Assembly: GCA_951406725.2 (NCBI GenBank)
Contig: OX597816.1
Span: 29,512,001 to 29,576,000 of the forward strand
Source of the DNA: Octopus vulgaris
Taxonomy: Eukaryota
Length of the DNA: 64,000 bases
Direction of reading: 5' to 3'
Within the stretch, counting starts at the first letter, position 1. Every line of letters starts with the position of its first letter. Positions 4,899-53,916 of the stretch are shown piece by piece. Below the pieces are notes generated by a model. The model searched no databases and had not been told where the DNA came from. It saw only the letters and a list, made by a program, of their open reading frames with translations. A program made the translations under genes and the position numbers.

Positions 4899-5664
4899 TA
4901 ATCATCAATGTACTTTTCCTGAATTATCTATGACTTCCTTCCATCTATTTACAAGCTTTTTAATCCCATTTAACGAAAAACTCTTTTGGTTTCAAAGTGA
5001 AGAACTCTGAAATATCAGTTTCCATCTGCGCCTGACTTGCGTGGCTTATGTTCCCCAGATGATTCGGTAAACTACGAAACAAATGGCAGTCTGAAAGAGC
5101 ATGGTCAGGAAAATAAGGTGGATGAGGAAATTTTTCCCAACCAAGCTCTTCGATCTTCTGTGATGTGATTCTTTGCAGTGTGGAGTCGCGCATTGTCCTG
5201 ATGAACCATCACTCCTTTTCCGTTCGATAAAGCTTGGTTCAAAGCTTGGTTCAAACGCTCTAATTGCTGACAGTATACTTGAGCATCGATTGTTGCATTT
5301 TGTGGTAACAATTCAAAGAGAATTACTCCTTTGCAATCCCACCAGATAGAGAGAAGAACCTTTTCCCCATTAAGTTCCCTCCCCGGTTGTGGTTGAGCCT
5401 TTTGCCTTTTACCAAGCCACTGTTTATGACGTTTAACATTTCGATAGAAGATCTATTCTTGGTCATCAGTCACAAGTCTATCCAGAAAGGGTGAAATGAG
5501 TTCGAGAGAATGGAGAGAAGAGCAGATGTCAGCTCGGGATTTGCCGTTGCTTTCGGACAATTCATGAGGCACCCATTTTCCAAATTGAAGAAACTTTCCA
5601 TGTTGTTGAAGATGACGATGAACAGTTGTATATTTTAAACCGAGCTTTATTGCCAATTCTTCAA

Positions 5665-5667
<3 letters not shown>
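4899..5667 (-). mobile_element. Tc1/mariner transposase remnant (mariner-type), 5'-truncated at a (TA)n run
   Basis: Minus-strand frames give WVPHEL, DRLVTDD, HQDNARLH, HPPYFPDHALSDCHLFRSL and a C-terminal KLVNRWKEVIDNSG. Frameshifted. Confidence 0.92.
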
Positions 5668-5741
<74 letters not shown>

Positions 5742-5760
5742 ACCATATATAGATATATTC

Positions 5761-6184
5761 TTTTATTCTTTTATTCTCTTCCTTTCTTCAGTCACTTAAC
5801 TGCAGGCATGCTAGAGCACGGATTTTTTAGTCGAATAAATCGTCCCTAGGACTTATTCTCTCTAAGCTTAGTACTTATTCTATCGTCTCTCTTGCCGAAC
5901 CACCAAGTTACGGCGACACATCAACGGAAGGGGGGGGAACACACACACACACACACACACACAAATACACACACGCACATACACAAACACACACACACTG
6001 ACACACCCAAACATATATATATATATGGGCATCTTTCAATTTCCGTCTTCCAGGTCCACCCCCAAATTTTTGGTCTGCTCGAGGCTAAATTAGGAGACAT
6101 TAGCGCAAGTTGCCACACACTTGGACTGAGCCCGATACCCTGTGGTTGAGAAGCAATCTTCTTACCACACTGTCACGCCTGTGC

Positions 6185-8650: not shown

Positions 8651-9228
8651 TGGGTGATTCAAATGTGCCATACACAACGAGCAATTGGAGAACAAATGAG
8701 AGGGTGAATTAGTAAATGTGCGTAAGTGTGATGATGAAGAAAGGAGATGTGCCGGAAGGGGTATGAGAGTGGAGAGTATACATGAATACATGTTGATAGG
8801 TGGACGTGAACGCATTCACCTATATATTCATCAAATGCATAATCACACTTATACACATTTTTTATATAAGCACACACACACACACCACACACATACATAC
8901 ACACAGGCTGATTGCTAACTAGTTCAAATACTAGGAAATCCCCAAATTGTAGAAATCCAAAAGATAGGGCTCATGAGACTTTCCCATACCCTACATAAAA
9001 TACTGTCTATGTAATCACAAATTTTAAAACAAACTTATAATTTTCTTGTGTTTTCTAAGACATTCTCTAGAACAATATTTTGTGCAAAACAAAATATATG
9101 GCACCCTAGTCGTAACTTCGACTCCTAACTTGTTGTTTCTTGAGCTCTCTGGGTGAGACTTGGAGTTAACTTGTATAAATACAAAGTAAAAAGTCAAACT
9201 TATAAAAGTAATAAAATAAAAATAATAA

Positions 9229-10385
9229 TTATATTTCCAACAAATGGATCCTACAAACACTACCCTTGAACAAAGTAGCACCAATAATCATAAAGTATAT
9301 AAAACATTCCATGAGTAAATGGCAAGCAGTGCTACAAATCCAGACAAAGCCGAGACTCATAAAAACCAAAGCCATGCTCGTTAGAGGAGGAATATTCCCG
9401 GGAGACACGCTCTCACCTCGTCTTTTCTGCTTGGCACTGACACCTTTATCTGAAATGCTAAACAGAACTAGATGTGGATACAAATGATACGGCAAAACAA
9501 TCAGCCACCTCTTATATAAAGGTGATCTAAAACTGTATGCTACAAAAGATGAACAGCTGAAACATTACTACAGGCACTACATGGATATACCAAAGAATTA
9601 AACGTGAAATTTGGCTCAGAAAAATTTGCCAAAGCAACCTTGAAAAGAGGAAAACTACTTAAGAGTAGCAACATCACACTAGATAAAGCAAATGAAATAA
9701 GAGAGTTAGACCAAAGCCTTGACATACAAATACTTATGAATCAATGAACTAGATACGATACAATACACACAAACGAAAGAGAAGGTAATAAAATAATGTT
9801 ATAGATAAATCAGATTAATACTGAAAGCAGAGCTCAATGCAAAAAACAAGATAATAGTTATCAACATTCAGTTATAATATTGTGCACCCAGGCACAATAT
9901 CCCTAACTCCTGGCTAAAATACCTAACAGGAATACATAAGACGCTGGTCAAGAAATTCAATGAGATACTAGCAGAGCCATGGTAAAAATTGGGATACTCT
10001 AAACAGAAAAGAAATAGACAAAGTAAAATCCCAACTCTGGCTGAGAAGCTCAGGACTGAAAATAGAAACTGAAGGATTTTTAATTGCAGCACAAGATCAA
10101 AGCCACCAACCAGAGATCATCTGAGACGCATGATGAAGATAGAAGTAACTGCAGAATATCTGGAGATTGGGAAGAAACAATAAGCCATATTGTCTGTGGT
10201 TGCCGAATCTTGGCTAAGAATAAATATACCCACAGTCATGACAGACTTGGGACCTATATACACTGGAAGCTATGCAAGCACTGTGGAATGATAACTAAAA
10301 ACAAAGATGTTACATGCACACCTCAGAAAAGGTCTCTGAAAAGGACAAAGCAACCATGTTCTGGCATATGCCAATACACACAGTG
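9229..10385 (+). mobile_element. R4/Dong-like non-LTR retrotransposon fragment (RT plus zinc knuckle preceding the RLE), pseudogenised
   Basis: GIFPGDTLSPRLFCLALTPLS and ISHLLYKGDLKLY are decayed RT motifs (QGDxLSP, YMDD). CRISGDWEETISHIVCGC and YTHSHD are decayed CCHC and RHD motifs. Confidence 0.88.
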
Positions 10386-11716
10386 AAGTGTCCCCACGCT
10401 GAACTGTAACTTACCAAACCTGCTATTATACTTAAATAAACGCACGCACACACACACGGGCGCAGCCACAAACATTACCATTTCTATCAGAATTACTGTG
10501 GCAGACGTAAAAATATATGGTATAAATATATGAGAGCCTGACAAATAAAAAAGTGGTGGACAAAGCGTGTACAAAGTAAACAAAGTTGGGGACTGTTACA
10601 ACCAAATTTCTAATAGTATTTAGATATTTATCTTCGACGATATCACAAGGTGTGGATGTTAGATTTTCTCTTAGAAATGGAAGAAATTTCAAGTTTTATT
10701 GTTATCACATCATTATGTGTCTTCTAATTAGAATATTGCGCATGAAAGAAGCCATGCACTAAGTTACCTTTAGAAGATAATTGACGTGCGTTTTAACCAT
10801 ATTAAAAGGCTGTAAATAAAAATTATTCTTACTTAAATGAAAACTTAGATATAGGATAACGTAACGTAAGTGTTTCTATTCTCTTAGTCCATAAAATTAG
10901 AATTATTTTGATTTTCAAAAGCCATGCTGTGTACGCGTTAATTTTTACATTTTAAAAATTTTTTTCTTAGTCAGAGGAAGAAAAATAATTTATTTACCAA
11001 ACAGCAGAAACAAATTGAAGAAAGGTAGAACTAAAAAACTGAAGAATAAACCATGAGGCATCGAATATTCGTCCTAATATTTGCTAAATGCAAGCAAGTT
11101 TTAATAGCAGTGGTTAAAATATTTTTACTCATTATTTTTGAAAGTGACATAAATCTAAAATGTTCACATTTCAAAATGTCATAATTCTATGTAATGATAA
11201 TATCAGGCTTACAGCAGTTTGTTAAGTCTTCATTTACAACACAATACAAAGCAATAAACAGAGTATATGATAAAATCATGTGTATTGTTAAAATCGTTAT
11301 GGTAACAGTAAATATTTTATCATTATTCTAATCTCAACAATGAAGTAATACATGATATGATTATAATTATGCATGTATATATGTATTTCGCCATATAAAT
11401 AAGCGTGTACATAAAGACAGAAAAAGTAAAATTAAATAGTAATGGACAGACAAGAGCTGAATTTTAAAGTAAAGCAAAATTGTGATTTTGTGACAAAAAT
11501 ACTTCATATCAATTTTGCTTTCTGCAAATATATGCTTCACTGAGGAGTAGTGTCTTGTTCATAGAAGAAATATATAACCGTAAATTCATGTTTCTGACTG
11601 ATAGTTCACGAGTCTTCTACATAAGCATCTCTCCGCCTGTATGCGATAGCAATTTCTCGCTTTCACTTTCTAATTCGCATCTTCAAAACTGTTATATTGT
11701 AACCAATTTATTCTAC

Positions 11717-11790
11717 ACTAGCAGAGATACCCGGCGTTGCCCGGTTACATCCAATAGAAGAATTAGACTTTTCTGTTATATATATATATA
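11717..11790 (-). mobile_element. Short non-autonomous Helitron-like remnant
   Basis: actagcagagatacccggcgttgcccgg is the reverse complement of the 3' hairpin plus CTAG terminus shared with 12463, 18968, 36253 and 38491. Confidence 0.6.
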
Positions 11791-11807
11791 TGGATACACA
11801 CACACAC

Positions 11808-11852
<45 letters not shown>

Positions 11853-11956
11853 TTTATGTATAGTAATATAAATACATGAAAGTACATGAAGTTTGTTAAA
11901 AAAAGGGGGATCATGTATATACCTCCTGGCTGTTGAGATTATAACACCTCGTTGTA

Positions 11957-12419
11957 AACTCGTCTTTTGTGCTAGGCCACTGGTAATAATAATTTATTTT
12001 ATTACCCTATTTGATTATGTTTTAATATTGCTTGATAAATTTGTTCGTAAATCTTTTACCGGCATCCTCTCTGTTCGCCGGGTATGGTTTGCGTCTGCGC
12101 AGAGGTTTGAAAAGTTAAGATATACAAACCGTTAGATCTACATGTGCTTCTAACAGTCTGTGCGTCTAGGATTACGAAGGCTTCCCACTGAAGAACCTGG
12201 CCTGGAAAATATATTCTGAGTGTTTGCTAAAAAAGAGGTAGAAACCGTTCGGTCTGGGATATAGCTGAGATGGTAAATGTTTTTAATTTTCATTCCTTTC
12301 ATGAATTTATCCCTTTTGTGTTTCTAGCACTACGCCTCCTTATTTGGAAGCCTTTTATTATATTTCTATACGAAAAATATATAGTCTAACGACTAACTCG
12401 TCTTTTGTGCTAGGCCACT
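11957..12419 (+). mobile_element. Retrozyme-like monomer (438-bp unit plus 25-bp terminal redundancy)
   Basis: aactcgtcttttgtgctaggccact occurs at 11957-11981 and 12395-12419. The unit contains an HHR and is followed by (TA)n. Confidence 0.75.
12183..12259 (+). ncRNA. Type I hammerhead ribozyme
   Basis: tccca-CTGAAGA-acct...aggt-a-GAAA-ccgttcgg-TC-tggga: 5-bp stem I, stem II acct/aggt, stem III Accg/cggT, GUC triplet ending at 12254. Confidence 0.85.
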
Positions 12420-12421
12420 AG

Positions 12422-12462
<41 letters not shown>

Positions 12463-12463
<1 letters not shown>

Positions 12464-12960
12464 TAGCAGTATCGCCCGGCGTTGCTCGGGTTTGTAAGGG
12501 AAATAACTATATAAGCATTTTTAGAGAGCTACTTCCCTTTATAGATGCCAATTCGGGCTTTCTTAGCCATTTCTGTTTTGGTGTCTTCAAGCCATGAAGT
12601 CGTTGTTCTAAAAGAACGCTGGTCTCCTTGACAACGCTTTACGACGTTGATTTCCTTACACTCCCTCCCCCACAGCTTCACGAGGGAGGGAAGAAGGGGG
12701 AGAAGCAAACAGGTGCAGGTGTGACCATGGACGCCAACTCCGCCGCCATCGACACACGAAAAATTATGCATTAAAATGGAATAAAAAATGATGTTAAATT
12801 ATTTTTAAAATCGTAGACTCATTGTAGACGCGCGCTAATACTCAGACGGGCTCGATATGAATCACGACTATAAGATACCCGAATTTGGTTAAACTGCACC
12901 GCAAAATGTGGGAGTAGTTAGGAATCTAAATCGAAGGAGACAGACACTCACACAACTACA

Positions 12961-12975
<15 letters not shown>
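12463..12975 (-). mobile_element. Non-autonomous Helitron-like element
   Basis: Minus strand ends cccgagcaacgccggg (hairpin) then cgatactgCTAG-t; the 5' end runs from (TA)n. Homologous to 18670-18968 and 35889-36253. Confidence 0.8.
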
Positions 12976-13002
<27 letters not shown>

Positions 13003-13910
13003 AATGCAAGACCTATAATCCTGTAAGTAGTGTTTGCATCTGAATATCGTAAGGGTCGTCCAACACCTTAGAATATAAGTTTCTGGTAGATTTTCCACTG
13101 ACAGATTACTCAATTAACCAGTTTCAATATGAAAATTTTAAATTAATTCAATTTAATCTCTCTTATTGAATTAATTGGCTATGGAAACGTTTGTAGAGAT
13201 AATAATTTCATACATTGATTTGAATATCGTTGAATAAAATGATGTCTATATGTGAATTTATCCATATTCCTCTTTTTGTCGTACTCACACACACACACAC
13301 ACAACACATCATTTTGCTGAATAAGCCATAACGTCATATGGTAAATATATATATACTGACAGTCGGTATTTAGCTTGACCGTCTAGCGACGGATTATTCA
13401 CAACTGATTGCTTTGTAATCCTCAAACGAAACTATAATATAGTGATCTCGTTCGCTTTGGGGCGGTTATCTCCCTTCCCAGAATACGGAAATCTGCTTTC
13501 TGCGGTTGTAAGGGCTTTTTAGCTCTTATTAGCAATGTATGTGTGACTCTGCACCCCCAGTCACTGCTAGTTTCAAATGAATCTTTCGTTTTTGGTTTTA
13601 TATTACGTATAACCGTCTTTCTCATTTTATATATGACTGTGTGCGTGTCTTTGTGTGTGTGTGTATGTGTGTGCATGTGTGTGTATGTATGTATCAGCGT
13701 ATTTACGTATTATTTTTTTATTCCAATAAACCTACTGCTCTGTGCTCCTTAATTCTTGTACTCTTTGGATCTTTTACTGGTTTAAGTATGGGGTCATCAG
13801 GAGAGAATGCGCGCCGTTTCGGGGCCTACCTCACGGCGGCATCAATGTGCACCGGCCCCCCCTCACTGACATGAGGCCCCGCTTGCTTAATCAGCTGGTT
13901 ATCAAATAAC

Positions 13911-14255
13911 TGCCTTTAGTCGAATAAATCGACCCCAGGACTTATTCTTTGTAAGCTTAGTACTTATTCTACCAGTGTCTTTTGCCGAACCGCTAAGTTA
14001 CGGGGGCGTAAACACACCACCATCGGTAGTTAAGCGATGTTGGGGTGACAAACACAGACACACAAACATATACTCACATATACATATATATATACATATA
14101 TACGACAGGCTTCTTTCAGTTTCCGTCTCCCAAATTCACTCACAAGGCTTTGGTCGGCCCGAGGCTATAGAAGAAGTCACTTGCCCAAGGTGCCAAGCAG
14201 TGGGACTGAACCCGGAACCATGTGGTTCGTAAGCAAACTACTTACCGCACATCCA
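13911..14255 (-). mobile_element. SINE family A copy, 3'-truncated
   Basis: Collinear with the other family A copies. Confidence 0.9.
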
Positions 14256-17738: not shown

Positions 17739-18669
17739 TATTTGTCCATTTTCTTGTAATCGCTTCCGTGTTTCATTTCGCTGTGTTGGGGGAAAATGTT
17801 AGCTAGTAAATGTAGAAAATTTTAGTTCCTGATACTCGTAATTATTGCTGTTTCCCTCTCTGTGTCTCGTTGAGACAAATGAAGACATACAAAGGGAAAG
17901 ATCAGGTAGCCTTCTGTGAATGCGCAGCCGGAAACCATTTATAGGAACAGGCGTATTGTTTATGGACACACTAGAAACATTTGAATTTTTGATTGAATAT
18001 GTATATACGAAACTTTTGATTATTTGTATATTTTCTTTAAAAGTTACATCAAACGGAAAAAAATCATTGAAAACAAAATGCAAACTCTTTATTACCATCA
18101 AAATATATAGGTTCCTTACGAACACAGATTCCACGTGTTCATTGAACTTCATATGTAGGCTATTTTTTGTTATGTATTCGATGCCATCACTTCGAAAATA
18201 CTACTTTATTATTGATGCCACTTCGTTCAGGTAGAGAGTTTCATATGAAATATGAGGGCCCGTTGAAATGCGCCTCGTCAGATGTAATAATTCTAGAAAA
18301 AAAACTTCCTTTGATTAGTACGTTATAGATGTGAAAAGTGTGAAAAATAAATTGACTTTCGCCGAATTTGAATTCAGAAAAGGAAATAGAAAAGAAATAG
18401 AAAAAAATCTCGCAAGGCAGTTTGTCCGATGGTCTAGCACCTTGGTCAAATCATATTAATAATATTAATATTAATAATATTAATAATTGAAATAAAGTAA
18501 CTTCTTGCTCGTCACAAAATCATTTATAATTTCTTTTATAATCATCTCTATTAAATATTTTAACACTAAATTGTAGATTTATTTTAGATTGTAGATCTAC
18601 CTTATGTTCCCCCGTGAATTATATTATTAATAGTATGTTGTATTGCTGGAATTATATAAATTAGTATAT

Positions 18670-18968
18670 ATTTATATATAAAAGTGAAGTTGTGTGTCTG
18701 TCTCCTACAATTTAGATTCATAACTACTCCCACATTTTGCGGTGCAGTGTAACCAAAACCGAGTATCTTATAGTCGTGATTCATATCGAGCCCTTATGGG
18801 TATTAGCGCGCGTCTATGATGAGTTTACGATTTAAAAAAAAAATTACCATCATTTTTTCCCATTTTGAATGCATTTTTTTGCTATTATATAAGGGAAGTA
18901 ACTCTCTAAAAAATGCTTATATAGTTATTTCCCTTACAAACCCGAGTAACGCCGGGCGATACTGCTAG
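18670..18968 (+). mobile_element. Non-autonomous Helitron-like element
   Basis: Ends cccgagtaacgccggg-cgatactgCTAG-t; homologous to 12463-12975. Confidence 0.8.
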
Positions 18969-19959
18969 TATTTTCTAAAAGACTTGGCTGGAAGAGAATT
19001 CATTGTGGTACAAGGACTTTGTTGACTGAAAATGTACCTGTGATCTTGAACAGAAGATAAAAGCTTAACTTTATATTCGAAACCGCCATATATATCTCTA
19101 ATACGATAATTAAAATAAATTTAGCAATTAATCAGGAAATGACACTTATGCTGCGATTGCGAACAGATAAATTGATTGTCTTTTGAAAGATTAGAGCGAA
19201 TGGTTCAGAGATATTGAGATTTCGTTCTGTCATACATTTTGGACCATGCTTTGTTTAATAATTAAATGTAGATACAAAATTTAGTTGTACAGGTTATAAT
19301 GTAATTGACGTGTAGTGCGAGAAGCATTGTTTCATTTAAAGAAAATTATTCAATTTTATTATAGAGGAACTTTTATTCCGTAAGAAATCTTCATCAATGT
19401 CTGCATTTAGTTATAACTATTTTAAGCGTGTAATCTCTTTAATTTGACAATAGGAGATTTTAACAATTGTCGACTTAGTGTTCAGAATATACAGATTAAT
19501 TCGATTTCTTTTCTTTCATTATATATGAATACTACTTTTAAATTGAACAGACATTTATGGTATATGTCAAATGAGACGAAATTCGATTCACTTTCAGACT
19601 AACCATCTCTCGTTTTCAATTTGTAGACCGGAAATACAATTAAACACAATCTGGCAGCCAAATGAAGAATAAATATCTCTCATTAAATAAAAAAAAATCA
19701 TAACATGGTTTAAAGACTCTGGGACTCACATTTGTTGATAGTCGTCTCTGCAATAGAATTTACGATATGTGTATTCAGGTCTATATATGATATAGGTAAA
19801 AGTGAAATATAACCACTAGTTTTATACGTCTTCACTTCTACGGAGTGGAATTTGCTATTGATATTATCTGCATTGGTTTAAAGTGATGACCATCGCGAAA
19901 GATTGTATATCTAGGACTACTATATACTTCAGTATATATTTAGTTGATATTGGAGAGTT

Positions 19960-28530: not shown

Positions 28531-28601
<71 letters not shown>

Positions 28602-28723
28602 TCACAATCAAGGAACGGCCATAATAGGCCATTCACCCACTAGAAATAACAGCCAAAAGCTTCAACCGCAAAATAACATCAATTCCGTAAACCAGGAGAA
28701 AATTAAAAAACATTTACCCTGTA

Positions 28724-28830
28724 ATTTCTTATACGATGCACCGTTTCGTCTACTGTTTAATGGTAAACTAACGTGATTAAATTAAATCAAGCCAATCTAC
28801 CATAGGCCCTTAGATTCATCAGTAAGAAAT
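28724..28830 (-). ncRNA. Type I hammerhead ribozyme, array copy 1
   Basis: Minus strand: atttctta-CTGATGA-atcta...tagac-GAAA-cggtgcatcg-TA-taagaaat. Perfect 8-bp stem I, near-palindromic stem III, GUA triplet. Confidence 0.88.
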
Positions 28831-29214
28831 AGCCAAGTCGGAACAGATATTTTTCACGAGGCATTCTCGTCCCTGCCTCGTCTATATCTGACCTAAAATT
28901 TTCAAATCGTCGCACTCGCGCCAAATTTATCGGCAGCAAATAAATATAAGCCGCCGATTCCATTACGGAATTAACCAGAAAATTCATAATTAATCAATAT
29001 AGGGTGGCAAAAAAATTTTGTAGAATTCTTTTGCCACCAGCGGCCTAGTGGGAAAAAATTTAAATAGTCATAAACCATTTTTAAGTTCAACATCACAATC
29101 AAGGAACGGCCATAATAGGCCATTCACCCACTAGAAATAACAGCCAAAAGCTTCAACCGCAAAATAACATCAATTCCGTAAACCAGGAGAAAATTAAAAA
29201 ACATTTACCCTGTA

Positions 29215-29321
29215 ATTTCTTATACGATGCACCGTTTCGTCTACTGTTTAATGGTAAACTAACCTGATTAAATTAAATCAAGCCAATCTACCATAGGCCC
29301 TTAGATTCATCAGTAAGAAAT
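29215..29321 (-). ncRNA. Type I hammerhead ribozyme, array copy 2
   Basis: Same core and stems as copy 1. Confidence 0.88.
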
Positions 29322-29702
29322 AGCCAAGTCGGAACAGATATTTTTCACGAGGCATTCTCGTCCCTGCCTCGTCTATATCTGACCTAAAATTTTCAAATCG
29401 TCGCACTCGCGCCAAATTTATCGGCAGCAAATAAATATAAGCCGCCGATTCCATTACGGAATTAACCAGAAAATTCATAATTAATCAATATAGGGTGGCA
29501 AAAATTTTGTAGAATTCTTTTGCCACCAGCGGCTAGTGGGAAAAAATTTAAATAGTCATAAACCATTTTTAAGTTCAACATCACAATCAAGGAACGGCCA
29601 TAATAGGCCATTCACCCACTAGAAATAACAGCCAAAAGCTTCAACCGCAAAATAACATCAATTCCGTAAACCAGGAGAAAATTAAAAAACATTTACCCTG
29701 TA

Positions 29703-29809
29703 ATTTCTTATACGATGCACCGTTTCGTCTACTGTTTAATGGTAAACTAACCTGATTAAATTAAATCAAGCCAATCTACCATAGGCCCTTAGATTCATCA
29801 GTAAGAAAT
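29703..29809 (-). ncRNA. Type I hammerhead ribozyme, array copy 3
   Basis: Same core and stems as copy 1. Confidence 0.88.
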
Positions 29810-30194
29810 AGCCAAGTCGGAACAGATATTTTTCACGAGGCATTCTCGTCCCTGCCTCGTCTATATCTGACCTAAAATTTTCAAATCGTCGCACTCGCGC
29901 CAAATTTATCGGCAGCAAATAAATATAAGCCGCCGATTCCATTACGGAATTAACCAGAAAATTCATAATTAATCAATATAGGGTGGCAAAAAAAATTTTG
30001 TAGAATTCTTTTGCCACCAGCGGCCTAGTGGGAAAAAATTTAAATAGTCATAAACCATTTTTAAGTTCAACATCACAATCAAGGAACGGCCATAATAGGC
30101 CATTCACCCACTAGAAATAACAGCCAAAAGCTTCAACCGCAAAATAACATCAATTCCGTAAACCAGGAGAAAATTAAAAAACATTTACCCTGTA

Positions 30195-30301
30195 ATTTCT
30201 TATACGATGCACCGTTTCGTCTACTGTTTAATGGTAAACTAACCTGATTAAATTAAATCAAGCCAATCTACCATAGGCCCTTAGATTCATCAGTAAGAAA
30301 T
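30195..30301 (-). ncRNA. Type I hammerhead ribozyme, array copy 4
   Basis: Same core and stems as copy 1. Confidence 0.88.
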
Positions 30302-30466
30302 AGCCAAGTCGGAACAGATATTTTTCACGATGCATTCTCGTCCCTGCCTCGTCTATATCTGACCTAAAATTTTCAAATCGTCGCACTCGCGCCAAATTTA
30401 TCGGCAGCAAATAAATATAAGCCGCCGATTCCATTACGGAATTAACCAGAAAATTCATAATTAATC

Positions 30467-30963
30467 AATAGTCGGTAAATCAATCAACTGGTTGTGTTTT
30501 TAAAAGTCCGGTTGTCGTCATTTGCGACCTCTTCAGAGAGAAAAACTCTTTCTTCCCAAATTAGCTTCACGTCTGTGTGGGCTCTTGTATAAATTTGAGG
30601 TATGAGCATGTATATGAGAAGAGGAAGGAGAAACAAAGAGGAAGTGTGTTTGTGCGTGTGTTTGTGTGTGAGTGCGCACTCTTACGTGAGTGCGTTGTGG
30701 TGTGTATGATTCTGAGTATGAGTGAATGCATGTTTATGTGGTGTAGCTGTTTCTTTGCGAATAGATGCGCTAAAGCGAATGTTTGTGTGTATATCTACGT
30801 ATGTTGTGTTTCTATGTGTGCTGCATCCATTTGGATATTTCCTTCTATTATTTACCTATCAGTCCTGACTTTTTGACAGCACAGTGTGTACCTGTGTTGG
30901 CATCATTGCCTGTCTGAACGTAATTCGGTTCTAACCATTCTATAAACCCATGCATATAAACAC
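30467..30963 (+). repeat. ~497-bp direct duplicate of 32903-33387
   Basis: Near-identical (one visible substitution and a 12-bp indel in the GT tract). Duplicate ORFs at 30577 and 33013. Confidence 0.95.
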
Positions 30964-30989
30964 CCTATATTGCCACACTATATTGATTA

Positions 30990-31096
<107 letters not shown>

Positions 31097-31510: not shown

Positions 31511-32902
31511 TATATATTATATATTATATAATTTATGTGTGTGTGTGTATGTATGTATATATGTATATATGCATAAGCATGTGTATGCGTGTGTGTATCT
31601 ATATATTTATGTATTTTTGTGTGTATGAACGGTTCCTAGGTGTGCTTGAGTGACTTTTGTGTTATTTACACATTTTCGGCTCTACATTTAGAGTGTTAAT
31701 GCAAAGTCCAGATCAGCGTGCTTATAATCGAATGCCTGAACATCGGAATGTTGTTTTTCAGTAATTGCTTTTATGTACACATTTTATATGTATGAATATC
31801 TCCACGGAATAACGTTGTTTTTGTACCGATATTAAACCGTTTCGGTAAATTATTGGAAAAATCATTTCCGAATATCGCTGGTGTCACGCTTTCAAATATT
31901 ATTACATAGGTAACACTTTGATGCGTAATTAGTTTTGCAATAAATTAAACGAAATTTTACAGTATAAATATTGTGACAAATGATACTTTTGAAAATATAA
32001 TTTAATTTGAAAATTAAACATTCGTAGCATTAGAGGCACTAATTACAAATATATCATCTAATTAATACCTACAGGACTTCTTACTTCATAGTAACAGACC
32101 CAAGCGGCACCGCACGGTTTTGACAGTGGTTGTTGTTATTGCTTACTGATCTACAGTTGAAAGTCAGAAATTCATTAGTGACCATCACGTCTGTCATTAT
32201 CATATTATGTACGTAGATCCACATTATTCAATATACACATTCGTTTTTAACATGATAAAATTTGAATGAGATTACTTTCTGTATTATAACAGCTTCGGCA
32301 ACCACTCAGAACCTTACTTGTCAGTTTGTAGATGTTTGGCATGTAGAGGTGCACAATTGCTATTGTCGAGTATATCTTTGCTTATCAGTATTGTGCAAAT
32401 TTCCAATGAGTTTGTGTTTCAACTATTTCTCGCTGTGAAAATTTTTATTATCAACTTGAGAGGAATCTGCTCTTGTCCCCGAATGCAAACCAGTACATTC
32501 TACATTTATCTGGCAGCCAGTTGTATGAGATTTATCAGCTGGATATTTCGTTTCCATTAGCATTTACAGAACATATTCTTCGTCACTATGAACGGTTTCC
32601 TCTGACACATGTGGACTAATAATGTGTTAATTACTCTCCAAGTGCCCTCTTTTAACGGTAATTTTTTTCCCTCTACCACCAACCAATTACCTATTATTGA
32701 AATTCCAGCTGTGTCTTTTTCATATATTTTGTATGAGGGATTGATGTATTAAAACTAATTTTATATTATCGGATTTAAAACAAAAAATTCTCCAACCACT
32801 TGAAGTATTTAAGATTTGTTCCTGATTTGTTTTCAAACTTTCTAGTCTAATGTAGTTTTGCATGCTGATGACGAAATTTACATTTTATTTTTCATAGAAA
32901 TT

Positions 32903-33387
32903 AATAGTCGGTAAATCAATCAACTGGTTGTGTTTTTAAATGTCCGGTTGTCGTCATTTGCGACCTCTTCAGAGAGAAAAACTCTTTCTTCCCAAATTAG
33001 CTTCACGTCTGTGTGGGCTCTTGTATAAATTTGAGGTATGAGCATGTATATGAGAAGAGGAAGGAGAAACAAAGAGGAAGTGTGTTTGTGTGTGAGTGCG
33101 CACTCTTACGTGAGTGCGTTGTGGTGTGTATGATTCTGAGTATGAGTGAATGCATGTTTATGTGGTGTAGCTGTTTCTTTGCGAATAGATGCGCTAAAGC
33201 GAATGTTTGTGTGTATATCTACGTATGTTGTGTTTCTATGTGTGCTGCATCCATTTGGATATTTCCTTCTATTATTTACCTATCAGTCCTGACTTTTTGA
33301 CAGCACAGTGTGTACCTGTGTTGGCATCATTGCCTGTCTGAACGTAATTCGGTTCTAACCATTCTATAAACCCATGCATATAAACAC
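32903..33387 (+). repeat. Partner (probable donor) of the 30467-30963 duplication
   Basis: Runs aatagtcggtaaatcaatc...catgcatataaacac, as in the first copy. Confidence 0.95.
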
Positions 33388-35758: not shown

Positions 35759-36253
<495 letters not shown>

Positions 36254-36265
36254 TATATATATATA

Positions 36266-36830: not shown

Positions 36831-38041
36831 ATAAATTCATTTGCATTTGATGGTCTTAAACTTGAGACATTTTCAAATGTCTCACCACTTTCAATGCAAC
36901 TGCAACGAATATGTTTTATTTCTTATTTCATTATTTTCATCCTGATACCCAATATATAACACAATGAAGGTCAGACAAGTGTTAATACCGATGGTACAGC
37001 ACACCTGTAATAGGGCGTATTAAGAAGCAAACTTTAAAAAATACAGTGTTGTATTTCACAATACCTAAACTTGTCTAACAGCAATGTGTAAGTTAAGAAT
37101 CCTAACTGAATCTTCAATAAGTATTAAAATACTATCGATTAGTGTTAAGGAAAAAAATTCACTATAGACGACTTTTTTTTTCTTCAAAAGTCCTCGACAG
37201 AATGAGTCTCTAAACACAATGGCTCTACAGGATTAGAAATATTCCATTTAAAATTGTACGTGCAAGCTACAATATTATGATGTAGTTTACAAATACAAAT
37301 TGGTATTTCGAGCCTGATCGATATTTTCTCATTCACGTTCATTGCAACGGTTTATTGATATGTGATAGGGATAAAGAAAATATATTTAAAAAAAAGCAAT
37401 TACAGTGAAATAAAAATATCGTTGCCATTAAATCTTTAACGGGAAAGATCTTTTTTTGTTATGTAATTTTTTTTAAAGAATATTGATTAATATCGATTTT
37501 TTCCTAGTGGCATCCAATCTGCTCTATCTAGTTAATAAAACTTCGCACGTTATTTTATTTGAAATTCCTTCTTTTAATCAATTGCCATTACCCATGTTAT
37601 ATATATTTAAGAAATATGTACAACAAAGTCGTCCATTAGATAATACATCTATTACCACATAACTTCCTATAACAGCTATTAGTGAAAATTTCAAAAAGGA
37701 TTTATAAATACCGCAACACGCACAGCGGTAGTTCCTGGAAACCCAGAACTATAATTCAAATTTGACTGCAACTTACAAAACGCCTCCACTATTCCTGCAC
37801 ATAACTCGCGAAATATCCATGTATGCATACGCAACAAAGACGCTCGTTATTTTTTCTCTCCTTTTCTCTGTATATATATATATATATATATACAAAAAGC
37901 AATAAAGATTCAAGTTAATTTAAATGAATTTACTTGAATATGGTACCTAACTTAGATGCACCAAAAAAAACTATACTGATTTAACAATACAGTAATGTGG
38001 GGTGATTATAAGCGAGAATGAAGCAACAAGAATGGATAGGT

Positions 38042-38132
38042 TTTTAGTACAATCGTTTCATACAAGGACAGGTTTTATTAAAAGTTGCAAAAATTACAGC
38101 ATATAAACGTGTCCCGTACTCATCAGCTAAAA
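38042..38132 (-). ncRNA. Type I hammerhead ribozyme (left arm)
   Basis: Mirror image of 38333-38423. Confidence 0.8.
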
Positions 38133-38332
38133 TACATGTGAGTTCTCTAGACATCCTAGTGGTTGAGGCTATACTCATGAAGTAATGTAGATAATTAAGT
38201 AACATAAACAGATTTCAAAAGTTCATTAAAGAACTTTAATGAACTTTTGAAATCTGTTTATGTTACTTAATTATCTACATTACTTCATGAGTATAGCCTC
38301 AACCACTAGGATGTCTAGAGAACTCACATGTA

Positions 38333-38423
38333 TTTTAGCTGATGAGTACGGGACACGTTTATATGCTGTAATTTTTGCAACTTTTAATAAAACCTGTCCT
38401 TGTATGAAACGATTGTACTAAAA
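38333..38423 (+). ncRNA. Type I hammerhead ribozyme (right arm)
   Basis: ttttag-CTGATGA-gtacgggaca...tgtccttgtat-GAAA-cgattg-TA-ctaaaa: 6-bp stem I, long stem II, minimal stem III, GUA triplet. Confidence 0.82.
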
Positions 38424-38453
38424 ACCTATCCATTCTTGTTGCTTCATTCTCGC

Positions 38454-38490
<37 letters not shown>

Positions 38491-49783: not shown

Positions 49784-50820
49784 CATATTCTACCAGTAAC
49801 TCTTGAAAACGCTAACATTTCACAACGAACTTTTATTTTATGAACTCAGTGACTCTGAAAATATCATACAACAGAGCCCAGTGTTCTAAGAAATTTAAAA
49901 TTTAAAAATTGCTTTCAGTTCGTTAGCTATGCATTCAGTAAAAATCTTTTTAACATGATATTTTGAAACAGAATAGTTTTTGGTACGCCAAGACTGATTA
50001 CAAGGGGAAATGATTTCAAAGCTGGAACAACAATTACTTGTATGTCGGGAAAAATTAAGACAGACCGTTATAATGCATTGCACTTATCATTATTTGCTTT
50101 TACTCTTTCACACAAACATAGATCCATCTATCTTATCGGCATCTCCCACTCATTATTTTGAAAGAAACAAAAATGTAGTTATCAGAGATCAAGTTACAGA
50201 CTAGATATGTTAGGTATTACAATGTTTGAGGGCATAACATCGCATTGACCGCCGTACGTGACTGGTACTTTATTTCACTGGCACTGGAAACTTGAAATGC
50301 AAAACTGCCCTCAAAAGAAATTTGAACTCAGAATGTTAAAAACCGCAACGTATATCCATTACGTCTCGTCATTAACTGATGTAATTTCTGATATATACTC
50401 ATACCAACTCTCTTATGCTAGTATTTCGTTATGCTGACAAAGTTTCCAAAACATGGACGTCGCAAATCATTCATATATGTAGATATATTCCTTTAGGTGA
50501 TGAGCTGACAACCTAAAACAACGTGTATAATATATTTCCTCACTTTCTACATATTTTACAAGATATTTTAATGTAGGATAAAATTCTTTTCGAAAAAAAT
50601 TCTTTTCCAAAAAAAATCTTATCAATGGCCAGCATATTAAAAAATACCTTTAAAGGTTAAATTTATAAACAATTCATAAATAAGGGCAAACGAAAAAATT
50701 TCTAATGCCAAATATGCCAAAAAATTGGACATATTGTCCATTAACCATTAATTTTTTCACAATTCGCACGCTACTCGAAAAAAGGTCGACAGAAATTTCT
50801 AAAAAATTCCATTATTACCA

Positions 50821-50873
50821 TATCGGACCGATTTCAGGGTTAGCTTATAACAGCCCTCCCTTCGTCAGTGATA
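50821..50873 (-). ncRNA. Type I hammerhead ribozyme
   Basis: Minus strand: tatca-CTGACGA-aggg...ccct-GAAA-tcgg-TC-cgata. Confidence 0.78.
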
Positions 50874-51330
50874 CATGTGGCAAAAGAAATAAATGAGATA
50901 CTTACTCATACCCATGGAAGAAGCAAACACTAAGTCATGAGCACAATTAAGTACCCCAAATACATCCAAAATAGAAATACTCCTGCCCATTCGAGACACG
51001 TGCGATTTGAACTGATGTTCTCACAGAGTGAAAGAGTCCGGAAGTGAACGCTTAAATTTATATTTTAATGTAGGATAAAATTTTTTTCGAAAAATATTCT
51101 TTTCCAAAAAAAATCTTATCAATGGCCAGCATATTAAAAAATACCTTTAAAGGTTAAATTTATAAACACTTCATAAATAAGGGCAAACGAAAAAATTTCT
51201 AATGCCAAATATGCCGAAAAATTGGACATATTGTCCATTAACCATTAATTTTTTCACAATTCGCACGCTACTCGAAAAAAGGTCGACAGAAATTTCTAAA
51301 AAATATCTCATTTATTTCTTTTGCCACATG

Positions 51331-51383
51331 TATCACCGACGAAGGGAGGGCTGTTATAAGCTAACCCTGAAATCGGTCCGATA
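51331..51383 (+). ncRNA. Inverted hammerhead copy with core mutation (CCGACGA)
   Basis: Same as 50821-50873 but with a U-to-C change at core position 4. Confidence 0.65.
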
Positions 51384-51800
51384 TGGTAATAATGTGAGAA
51401 AATATTTTACAAGATTATTACTGTATCCTATATTGTAAGCATTTTTTTTTCTAATCGATAACTTTAAATTTTTCTTTCCCACCATCAAGCACTGAACTTC
51501 ACATTTAGTAATGTGACATTTTCTTATCTATTTCTATCGATTTTTCATACATTGGTCTTTGCAAACGATCAAGCATGATATTCTATCTCTTAGTTTTAAG
51601 CTTTCTTGCAGTTGCTATTTCCAAGTTTCTCCTTCCACGAATATCGCTCATTCCAATTATTTTCTCTTTGTATTATTTCCCTGAAATAACGAAAACTGCT
51701 TGATTATTCCTTTCATGATTGTTTAAGCTAAATGCATTGTAGTCTTCTTCTTGCATAACAGCCGTATGTCACCACACATACGCACATGCACACACACACA

Positions 51801-52055: not shown

Positions 52056-52367
52056 GATCCCGTCATCTGCTAGAGGATGGTAGAGGTTTTCGACCCTGCT
52101 AGCAATATATAATTGATAACCAGCTGGAGGAAGGTCTTCCAGGGGTTGAGATATAAATATATACATATGCGTCTCTGTATGCATGTATGTTTATATATAT
52201 ATATATAATTTCAGCAAAAATTTAGATTCAAATGAATATGGTACTTAATTTAGATGCACCAGAATTTTGTATGGTGTTATCCATAAAAATCCGTGGGGTG
52301 ATTATAATCAAAATAAGCAACAAGAATGACTCCGGTAATTTGGTATATATGTATATATATATATATA

Positions 52368-52840
52368 AAATTAAAATCTTAGGGTAGCAAGAATATTCAT
52401 CGAAAAATTCTTAGTTACCAGTGGATGAATATTCTTCCTACCGTAAGATTTTAATTAATAAAAGTTTTTTTGGCTAATTCTGGAAGAAAATTGGCAATTA
52501 ATTTTGTTAATGCTGGTCGAGTTCCGCTTCTGCGCGGTAGATTTGAAAAATTAGAACCTATAGAGACGTGGCGGGTTATTCATCGCTCCGTGCCTATGTG
52601 TTCAGTGCTGGCAACCCCCTGAAGAAGCAGCGCCAGACATAGACTGAAATTATTTTATTTCAGTCTGTATTTAAGTCTGCAGAAACCTTGCAAGGTCTAG
52701 AATTAAGGTAAAAGTTTTTATTTTCCAATCCCTTTCGGAAATACAACAATTGGTGGCTTGGAGATTTAACTGCTCTTTCTAGCGAGTCAGATATCCTATT
52801 CTTCGGGTATCTCTTTTGTGTTTGAACGTACACTGTATTC

Positions 52841-52845
<5 letters not shown>
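52368..52845 (+). mobile_element. Diverged retrozyme-like monomer between (TA)n runs, with 5' fold-back
   Basis: Shares motifs with 11957-12419 and the 28600 array. Inverted repeat at ~52369-52401 / ~52424-52456. Confidence 0.65.
52614..52705 (+). ncRNA. Type I hammerhead with intact core and decayed stem I
   Basis: CTGAAGA-a-gcag...ctgc-a-GAAA-ccttgcaagg-TC. Perfect palindrome ACCTTGCAAGGT and an internal agactgaaat/atttcagtct hairpin. Confidence 0.72.
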
Positions 52846-52955: not shown

Positions 52956-53916
52956 CAATAAATGGTGGGCTTGTGTCTCCCGTTACGTAAACGAGTAGCG
53001 GTGCATAAAGAACAAATAAATCTCCCGGAATACCGACAAATTCCACTGAGCGACCACATAGACTCATGCGCTAAAGACATAAATCCCAAATTCTACATAT
53101 TCCCCTTCTACCAATGTAAAGACGGGATCACCACACAGGAGAGAATTAACAAGGAGAATATCTTTATTGAAAAATTCAAACACAACTTAATATGCAAACT
53201 CCTCGTTGATCATACTTCCTTTTTCTACCTCATTCTTCATGGATGGACTAACACAAATATATAAGGATACCATGCATTCATCACGTCAAGCTAAAACTTA
53301 TATTCTTTAAATATCATTTTTACTATTGTTGTTATTACTATCATGTTTTATTATATATGATATAACAATCTGAAATGTAATTATAAATTGGTTTATGCAA
53401 AGTTATATAATTAGAAAATAATATAAATAAAGTATTAAAATCTGAATGTTAAGTTAACAAACAATTATATAAAAAAGATAATGCAAATGAAGCTAAAATG
53501 ATAATTTTATAAGTTAAGGTTTATTAACACCTTTTATTACAAAAAATTGATAAACACAAATTGAAGAACTCAAAAGAGTTGTCTCCCCTTATTCACAACA
53601 CAGGAACTGAAGACTACAATTACTACTACTTCCTGTTTTGCCAACACCCTTAATTAAACTAAACAACACATGGTTTTAATCCCATTGGATCCTAATACTT
53701 CAAGGTAATTTTTTCGTGAACAATCATTAAACTCAAGATACACAAAGAATTCACAATGTATCGGAGTACTTATTTTTTAATTTTTGTACGTATTTATTAT
53801 TATTCTTTTGCAAAAAAACAATGCAATTTTCTTTTTTCCCCTTTCTCACTTTAAAAAAAAAAATTTTACCTCACAATTCTTGAAAAGTCACATTATGACG
53901 GAAACCGGTTTGAATT
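52956..53916 (+). mobile_element. Penelope-like element 3' remnant (GIY-YIG endonuclease C-terminus, 3' UTR, decayed HHR)
   Basis: LRKRVAVHKEQI...PLSDHIDSC...FYIFPFYQ...ERINKENIFIEKFKHNL has the R..H, H and R..E..I...(P).LN pattern of PLE GIY-YIG ends. HHR relic at 53875-53916. Flanked by microsatellites. Confidence 0.75.

Follow-up and report, generated by a model that had tools for sequence, protein, structure and literature searches.

A putative hammerhead retrozyme copy in Octopus vulgaris DNA, likely written from a template longer than one unit

We analysed a stretch of 64,000 nucleotides of Octopus vulgaris DNA (contig OX597816.1, positions 29,512,001 to 29,576,000; hereafter the window, with positions counted from its first letter). 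In it we found a 438-bp repeat copy that is a putative 1.05-unit, 5′-truncated non-LTR retrozyme, a solo monomer of a class already published. The template of this copy was likely longer than one unit. We propose that it was written into a (TA)n tract by a Penelope-type reverse transcriptase (RT), slightly over one unit and most likely from a ligated RNA ring, a reading that we favour and yet regard as about as apt to prove wrong as right.

Results

The 438-bp unit and the ends of the copy

The copy begins and ends with the same 25 nt (11957-11981 and 12395-12419, plus strand), an exact direct repeat at a spacing of 438, just as the first-pass annotation, made from the letters of the window, had described. 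The exact match cannot be extended; with one G/A mismatch the pair grows to 28 nt (GGT at 11982-11984 against AGT at 12420-12422), and the BLAST alignment of the pair is identical at 30 of 32 positions. No repeated complex 25-mer was found in shuffled windows (n=20). Random truncation would leave an overlap no longer than 28 nt in about 6% of copies, and this copy was picked out for its overlap. The repeat spacing defines a full unit at 11957-12394 (plus strand), a non-coding hammerhead repeat that is circularly permuted relative to the predicted ribozyme cut. The 3′ end of the element lies at 12419-12422 (plus strand), 165-168 nt past that cut, which the copy crosses without a scar, no bases being gained or lost at 12254/12255. 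The longest ATG open reading frames of the unit encode 39 and 50 amino acids and GC content is 0.38 for 12001-14000, so that the unit is short, low in GC and devoid of ORFs and LTRs, as retrozymes are. No ORF for RT plus GIY-YIG endonuclease, which would mark an autonomous Penelope-like element (PLE), was found in the copy.

The stretch is partly present in 20 of 24 public sequencing runs (9 studies, 4 coded organisms). Contigs of four runs, X1, X2, X4 and X6, which may stem from other individuals or species, were aligned at 80% likeness (889, 994, 1056 and 116 contigs, respectively). To the left of the element these alignments reveal a separate high-copy repeat (11870-11959, no strand assigned; depth 11,785-91,347 over 11870-11945 in X1, X2 and X4) that is cut off at the element's 5′ junction; the high-copy repeat between an (AC)n tract and the element occupies 11852-11959. 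One X6 contig (record 25) tracks the left repeat to 11959 and then diverges into sequence absent from the window. The AAC at 11957-11959 is thus common to the left repeat and the element, a 3-nt microhomology that leaves an element-only overlap of 22 nt and no TSD. These 3 nt are all that the left repeat and the element have in common, and no TSD flanking the copy was found at its borders; a long TSD is an optional trait of retrozymes in the passages of PMC7229834. The left repeat could be an opposite-oriented retro-arm from another RNA, or the body of a Helitron-like end at 11718.

On the right, a (TA)20 tract at 12423-12462 (no strand assigned) is likely the insertion target; the two relatives at 28600 and 52844 show this polarity towards (TA)n as well. 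It had been placed directly 3′ of the copy, which holds except for the 3 nt (12420-12422) that intervene. The same (TA)n is shared by a repeat at 12463-12964 (minus strand), with a hairpin and a CTAG end at 12463, which we take to be a Helitron-like non-autonomous repeat; it is not part of the element, and further copies lie near 18651-18971 and 35861-36254. No inverted arm is present in the flanks of the copy. The best match, 20 of 23 AT-rich positions at 11868-11890 (1 of 200 shuffles; BLAST E 0.2-1), we treat as due to chance. The window is AT-rich animal DNA laden with microsatellites. An inverted, 5′-truncated arm, an optional trait of PLEs, is thus missing from the copy and present in two of its relatives.

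A non-canonical hammerhead inside the unit

A descriptor scan and family variants identify a predicted type I hammerhead motif at 12183-12259 (plus strand). It consists of stem I (12183-12187/12255-12259), CUGAAGA (12188-12194), stem II (12195-12198/12236-12239), GAAA (12241-12244), a 4-bp stem III that has a loop of 2 nt, and GUC; cleavage is predicted after 12254. Every core base and the three stems are present, and an unpaired A12240 sits between stem II and GAAA; one such hammerhead per unit is what is found in retrozymes. The descriptor was composed after the motif had been seen and permits the extra base; it matches the real window 8 times, whereas shuffled 64-kb sequence averages 0.07 matches (n=60) and none of 3000 shuffled units has one. 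Among the 8 matches, only 12183-12259 combines an unpaired base ahead of GAAA with a paired position 10.1; at 10.1-11.1, a relative with a 488-bp unit has an A.C mismatch and a relative at 52.6 kb has A.A. Rfam gave no hammerhead match at gathering score in the whole 64-kb window, and at E<=10 over 11700-12600 it gave 30 matches, none of them a hammerhead and most of them microsatellite artefacts. The first-pass annotation had called the motif well formed. The core bases, the three stems and the excess over chance bear out a hammerhead, but with its extra A, decayed stem-II pairs and lack of an Rfam match that description is too strong. The hammerhead is more than chance, but it is not canonical.

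Folding is less informative. The free fold of 12183-12259 beats the forced hammerhead fold by 3.9 kcal/mol, a gap that does not discriminate, since it is 3.6-7.2 in three other hammerheads of the window. Free folds are unremarkable (z 0.61 for 12175-12270 and -1.06 for the monomer), and the circular fold of the 438-bp unit is no better than the linear one.

Family variants say more about the motif. Record 30 of run X6 covers all of it with three substitutions and one gap, three X1/X4 records cross 12188-12198 without gaps, and an X1 loose end carries identical letters; the extra A ahead of GAAA thus appears to be a family trait. Three stem-II positions that are unpaired here (12206, 12219 and 12235) are paired in relatives: the pair-restoring base makes up 98-100% of aligned depth at 12206 and 12219, and 29-69% at 12235. 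The fold is thus kept in the family, and the window copy has decayed; the restored pairs suggest selection on the RNA fold. The extra A may slow or abolish cleavage by the predicted ribozyme, and hence ring formation. In a passage of bioRxiv 10.64898/2026.07.22.740005 an active copy is defined by two consecutive units with complete hammerheads; the copy studied here has a single hammerhead and is a monomer derivative.

In natural hammerheads the core can accommodate an inserted base within GAAA (U13a) or a mismatch at 10.1-11.1, according to passages of Perreault et al. 2011 (PMC3088659), and the axolotl HHR_Amex2 is a variant-core hammerhead in passages of PMC7229834. The A.C and A.A at 10.1-11.1 of the window relatives are alike to such variants. 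A core insertion between 11.1 and G12 was found neither in the passages of PMC3088659 nor by a full-text literature search, which is weak evidence of absence.

Family copies in public sequencing runs

The unit belongs to a high-copy family, seen in all four aligned runs. Head-to-tail joints lead back by 438 in X2 (one contig, side 53) and by 423 plus 7 letters in X4. Many copies and head-to-tail order are features of retrozymes, the contigs here being equally compatible with arrays and with differently permuted monomers. Loose ends ahead of 11960 match the unit's tail in at least 14 (X2), 11 (X4) and 3 (X6) contigs, and loose ends past 12419 match its head in at least 5 (X2) and 2 (X6). Other copies thus join the unit's tail to its head, which places the 25-mer inside the element. 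This agrees with the earlier claim that the 25-mer belongs to the element and is not a host TSD, and comparison of homologues, which had been proposed as a check, indeed found other copies to be circularly permuted or tandem.

These contigs bear on a reading that we find scarcely tenable, in which the 25-mer is a host TSD or the unit arose at the DNA level, as a Helitron or satellite, with no RNA involved. Long TSDs are on record, in passages of the literature, for metazoan retrozymes; the 3′ end of the copy reads CTAG-T; and Helitron-like repeats have CTAG ends by (TA)n on both sides of the locus, as at the element. However, at least 28 contigs from three runs have the 25-mer inside the unit, it contains a motif conserved in the 488-bp unit, and the left repeat lacks it. 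The neighbouring Helitron-like repeats have no homology to the unit, and no GC-rich hairpin precedes the 3′ CTAG of the copy, unlike their own ends. Conservation of the ribozyme pairing also argues against this reading, which is already largely refuted. A Helitron 3′ end at 12419-12422 was considered separately and ruled out for want of a hairpin.

In each of the four runs, 87-100% of aligned depth disagrees with the window at five or more sites; the copy is aged and decayed. No listed contig spans the stretch or bridges its left junction, which is not proof that the allele is absent. An X4 contig of 1104 nt (record 24) aligns over 12286-12406 and continues with 982 unlike letters, so that another copy of the family appears to stop near 12406, its 3′ orientation being deduced from the alignment table.

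Four of 12 joints fall at 12249-12253, by the predicted cut (naive p about 2e-4). They may reflect cDNAs ending at this point, or the alignment may break where the stem-III loop varies, and they are not counted for the favoured explanation. Such joints would be seen if the RT ran to the 5′ end of a linear monomer released by the ribozyme and then switched to the 3′ end of that monomer or of a second one, so that a permuted copy arose seamlessly and with no ring. Template jumping is a known behaviour of non-LTR RTs. This course of events is nonetheless highly unlikely here, as the joints, with insertions behind 12247 and 12248 and short sides, can be alignment breaks, and no bases were added or lost at 12254/12255. 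Separately, an opposite-strand joint in X1 and X4 ties 12000 to 12253, beside the predicted cut, and maybe marks a two-armed copy starting there.

A motif scan of metagenome contigs gave two matches, which lacked both homology to the window and a hammerhead core and were put down to chance; the same scan of viral contigs gave none.

Relatives and other hammerhead elements in the window

One relative is an array of 3.8 units of 488 bp at 28600-30470 on the minus strand (28600-30990 with its inverted arm), whose 3′ end lies at (TA)n, 132 nt past the cut. The motif ctaggccRct, reported earlier for both elements, is indeed found in the array (minus strand, 29048 and 30028; a third copy is 1 nt shorter). 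The sharing goes further than had been claimed, because the whole 438-bp unit is homologous to the 488-bp unit: their global score is 249.5 versus 170.7 ± 11.4 for shuffles, none of 300 of which reached it. The inverted arm of the array (30970-30990) stands at a second (TA)n with 20 of 21 positions identical (0 of 500 shuffles). The 501 bp between array and arm (30463-30963) match 32899-33387 at 97% identity, as though the insertion had picked up DNA from close by.

A second relative, at 52369-52844 on the plus strand, is a decayed two-armed copy with its 3′ end at (TA)n, 146 nt past the cut, and an inverted arm at the left (TA)n. Its global score against the 438-bp unit is 218.5 versus 152 ± 11 shuffled (0 of 300). 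The core lies at 52619, with A.A at the stem II base; stem I is lost and stem III is palindromic. Past its conserved block this relative resembles loose ends of sister families in public contigs. The sense 3′ end thus lies at (TA)n in all three homologous elements of the window (at 165-168, 132 and 146 nt past the cut), and the inverted arms of the two relatives end 16-17 nt after the point where ACCCTA begins, at a second (TA)n.

The arms raise the question of later trimming, in which a longer or two-armed insertion would have been cut back by microhomology-mediated deletion, which would also have removed the rest of the left repeat and left an overlap of arbitrary length. We consider this unlikely. 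It would account for the 3-nt microhomology without a TSD, for the absence from the window of the left repeat's continuation and for the lack here of an arm that two of the three homologous elements retain; the age of the copy fits, and solo pLTRs without a TSD have been ascribed to deletion or recombination in passages of PMC3846280. However, the same passages have PLE insertion itself producing microhomology junctions without a TSD, what follows the left repeat is seen in a single contig, and trimming needs the 6% length coincidence.

The window holds further elements. An unrelated 497-bp hammerhead element (50551-51415, core at 50868 on the minus strand) has about 1.5 units (50563-51394), a 94-bp inverted arm and a 14-bp TSD at 50551 and 51402. 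A perfect 225-bp palindrome at 38007-38458 carries a type I hammerhead in each arm; its right arm ends at (TA)n and its left arm runs into a repeat also found at 52233-52328. Both are built with two arms, like the relatives of the copy, but the similarity of the 438-bp unit to these two is no higher than to shuffles. Just past the (TA)n of the 52-kb relative, a 100-aa frame (52962-53264) resembles the C-terminal part of a GIY-YIG endonuclease; its Atlas score of 0.86, with no Pfam match, makes it a lead only. Broken frames like those of a non-LTR retrotransposon were seen by eye at 9215-10386 (plus strand; no Pfam match), and a mariner-type transposase fragment lies at 5105-5770 (minus strand; PF01359, E 8e-24).

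Other conserved parts of the unit

Outside the hammerhead, depth peaks at 11965-12002, 12098-12116 and 12269-12306 coincide with blocks common to sister families. A predicted hairpin, GGTAATAA/TTATTACC, lies at 11982-12006 (plus strand), with CTAGGCCRCT on one side and CCTATWTTGAT on the other. In the 488-bp unit its position is taken by a hairpin of unlike sequence, with a fold z of -3.33 versus only -0.39 here. The block TTTGAAAA at 12102-12116 (plus strand; depth peak 12098-12116) is common to the 488-bp and 52-kb relatives, and a block just 3′ of the predicted cut (12272-12291, plus strand) recurs in sister families and falls in the top depth bin (12269-12287). A predicted domain at 12324-12413 (plus strand) is closed by the helix CTAGCAC (12324-12330)/GTGCTAG (12407-12413), with a fold z of -3.68 and 1 of 200 shuffles as good; at its place the 488-bp unit has CTAGTGGG/CCCACTAG, a covarying pair spotted by eye. 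The element's 5′ end, in unit register, falls at 12382-12395, the foot of a small predicted hairpin kept in the family and a possible RT stall site.

Discussion

Retrozymes, PLEs and a possible uncut template

Metazoan non-LTR retrozymes have reported units of 150-450 bp and vertebrate consensus sequences span 51-972 bp, according to passages of Cervera & de la Pena 2020 (PMC7229834) and of Li, Clavereau & Pollet (bioRxiv 10.64898/2026.07.22.740005). The model published in PMC7229834 has, in the part concerned, a circular RNA template and a borrowed RT, probably that of a PLE. On the features given in these passages our unit is like the metazoan retrozymes in being non-coding, of fitting size and low in GC, in having one type I hammerhead and head-to-tail copies, and in that solo monomers are common; unlike them, the 438-bp copy has an extra A between stem II and GAAA, a long stem II and no TSD. 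No hammerhead or retrozyme family of octopus or cephalopods was found in the literature by title or abstract, most subscription papers being outside reach.

Penelope elements offer the other comparison. The Penelope enzyme of the anole nicks AT-rich DNA on both strands and its RT starts inside the RNA, as passages of PMC11167929 report; the start lies 111-118 nt into the ORF and the hammerhead cut is at +26, which by subtraction puts the start 85-92 nt past the cut. PLE insertions are 5′-truncated partial tandems, often with inverted arms and a tail of 30-40 bp, and Naiads prefer (TA)n targets (passages of PMC8557442); inverted arms are typical of PLEs (PMC8557442 and PMC3846280, in part). On this partial record the copy is like PLE pseudo-LTRs in having an internal hammerhead upstream of the DNA 3′ end, a partial tandem, an AT-rich or (TA)n target and a microhomology 5′ junction, and the inverted arms of pseudo-LTRs are matched in the window relatives. 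Unlike PLEs as these passages describe them, the copy has no RT or GIY-YIG ORF, and no autonomous PLE has been tied to it by sequence. The overlap of 22-28 nt is slightly shorter than the PLE tail, and an equivalence of the two would be hypothetical.

In Penelope-type elements an internal hammerhead is the rule, because reverse transcription begins within the RNA, 3′ of the ribozyme (PMC11167929, in part); on its own it is no sign of a ring. The first-pass annotation had seen in the permuted monomer plus overlap a sign of a circular or multimeric template. A template longer than the unit is likely, in line with that claim; copying once round a circle is plausible, and at this locus it looks the same as copying of an uncut multimer or later trimming. 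The template may instead have been an RNA transcribed through a tandem array and left uncut, a linear dimer or multimer, with the overlap an ordinary 5′ truncation that fell soon after the first unit (a partial tandem or pseudo-LTR); this is possible though not probable. Head-to-tail junctions occur in DNA-type runs, which makes uncut multimer RNA no less available as a template, and the related array has 3.8 units; a non-canonical ribozyme may cut poorly; in vitro the anole PLE acted mainly on uncleaved RNA (passages of PMC11167929); and 5′-truncated partial tandems are the PLE norm. However, an uncut multimer requires the roughly 6% length coincidence, and linear forms make up under 5-25% of mussel retrozyme RNA, which passages of PMC7229834 describe as mainly rings.

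Proposed origin of the copy

A copy that runs over the cut without a seam and is longer than 438 nt requires a template longer than one cut monomer, which a ring, an uncut multimer, a jump between templates or a longer insertion trimmed afterwards could each account for. We rank the ring first because rings dominate mussel retrozyme RNA and explain a stop just past one lap. Head-to-tail or permuted copies exist elsewhere, as observed in the contigs. By analogy with retrozymes of coral, mussel and axolotl, source copies would be transcribed, self-cut at GUC and ligated into rings. A GIY-YIG endonuclease would then nick AT-rich DNA and RT would start about 165 nt past the cut site, as suggested by passages of PMC11167929 and by the shared polarity of the three window relatives. 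The cDNA would pass the ribozyme junction once and halt 22-28 nt into its second pass; this length is observed, and its cause is our supposition. The cDNA end, joined to the left repeat at the observed 3-nt microhomology without a TSD, would have been attached there through that microhomology. The copy then decayed, as observed, and a lone unit presumably cannot free a full monomer between two cuts.

A Penelope-type internal start is consistent with all three homologous elements of the window and with the further copy that seems to end near 12406, and PLE-type insertion with the inverted arms of two of these three elements and of the unrelated 497-bp element with its 14-bp TSD. Against the ring, the locus offers nothing that separates it from a linear multimer, and an overlap as short as this has its 6% chance in a copy selected for it. 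The copy also lacks a TSD and, unlike its relatives, an inverted arm; its hammerhead lacks Rfam support, the anole PLE mostly used RNA that was still uncleaved when assayed in vitro (PMC11167929, in part), and no autonomous partner has been tied to the unit by sequence.

A bolder form of the ring reading, which we hold to be doubtful, takes the overlap as a ruler of the enzyme. A Penelope-type RT that leaves the RNA:cDNA hybrid intact would lap the 438-nt ring, meet its own product and stall after displacing about 25 nt, so that insertion lengths would pile up just above whole units. The unrelated left repeat could be the second arm of one and the same two-strand insertion, templated by a different RNA, and the ring would come from a hammerhead active with an extra A before G12.

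Significance

Taken by itself, the 438-bp copy is decayed and unremarkable, a monomer whose class is known, and gives one data point on the open question of the template. Circular RNA as a more-than-unit RT template has already been proposed (PMC4209133, in part), and the circular-template, more-than-unit model is in print in passages of PMC4209133 and PMC7229834. Papers propose, without showing it in the passages concerned, that Penelope enzymes copy animal retrozymes from RNA circles. The extra A shared in the core is a cheap, testable ribozyme variant. If copies of a monomer plus a short overlap were over-represented genome-wide, the genome itself would speak directly for a ring template, and the overlaps would measure strand displacement by the RT.
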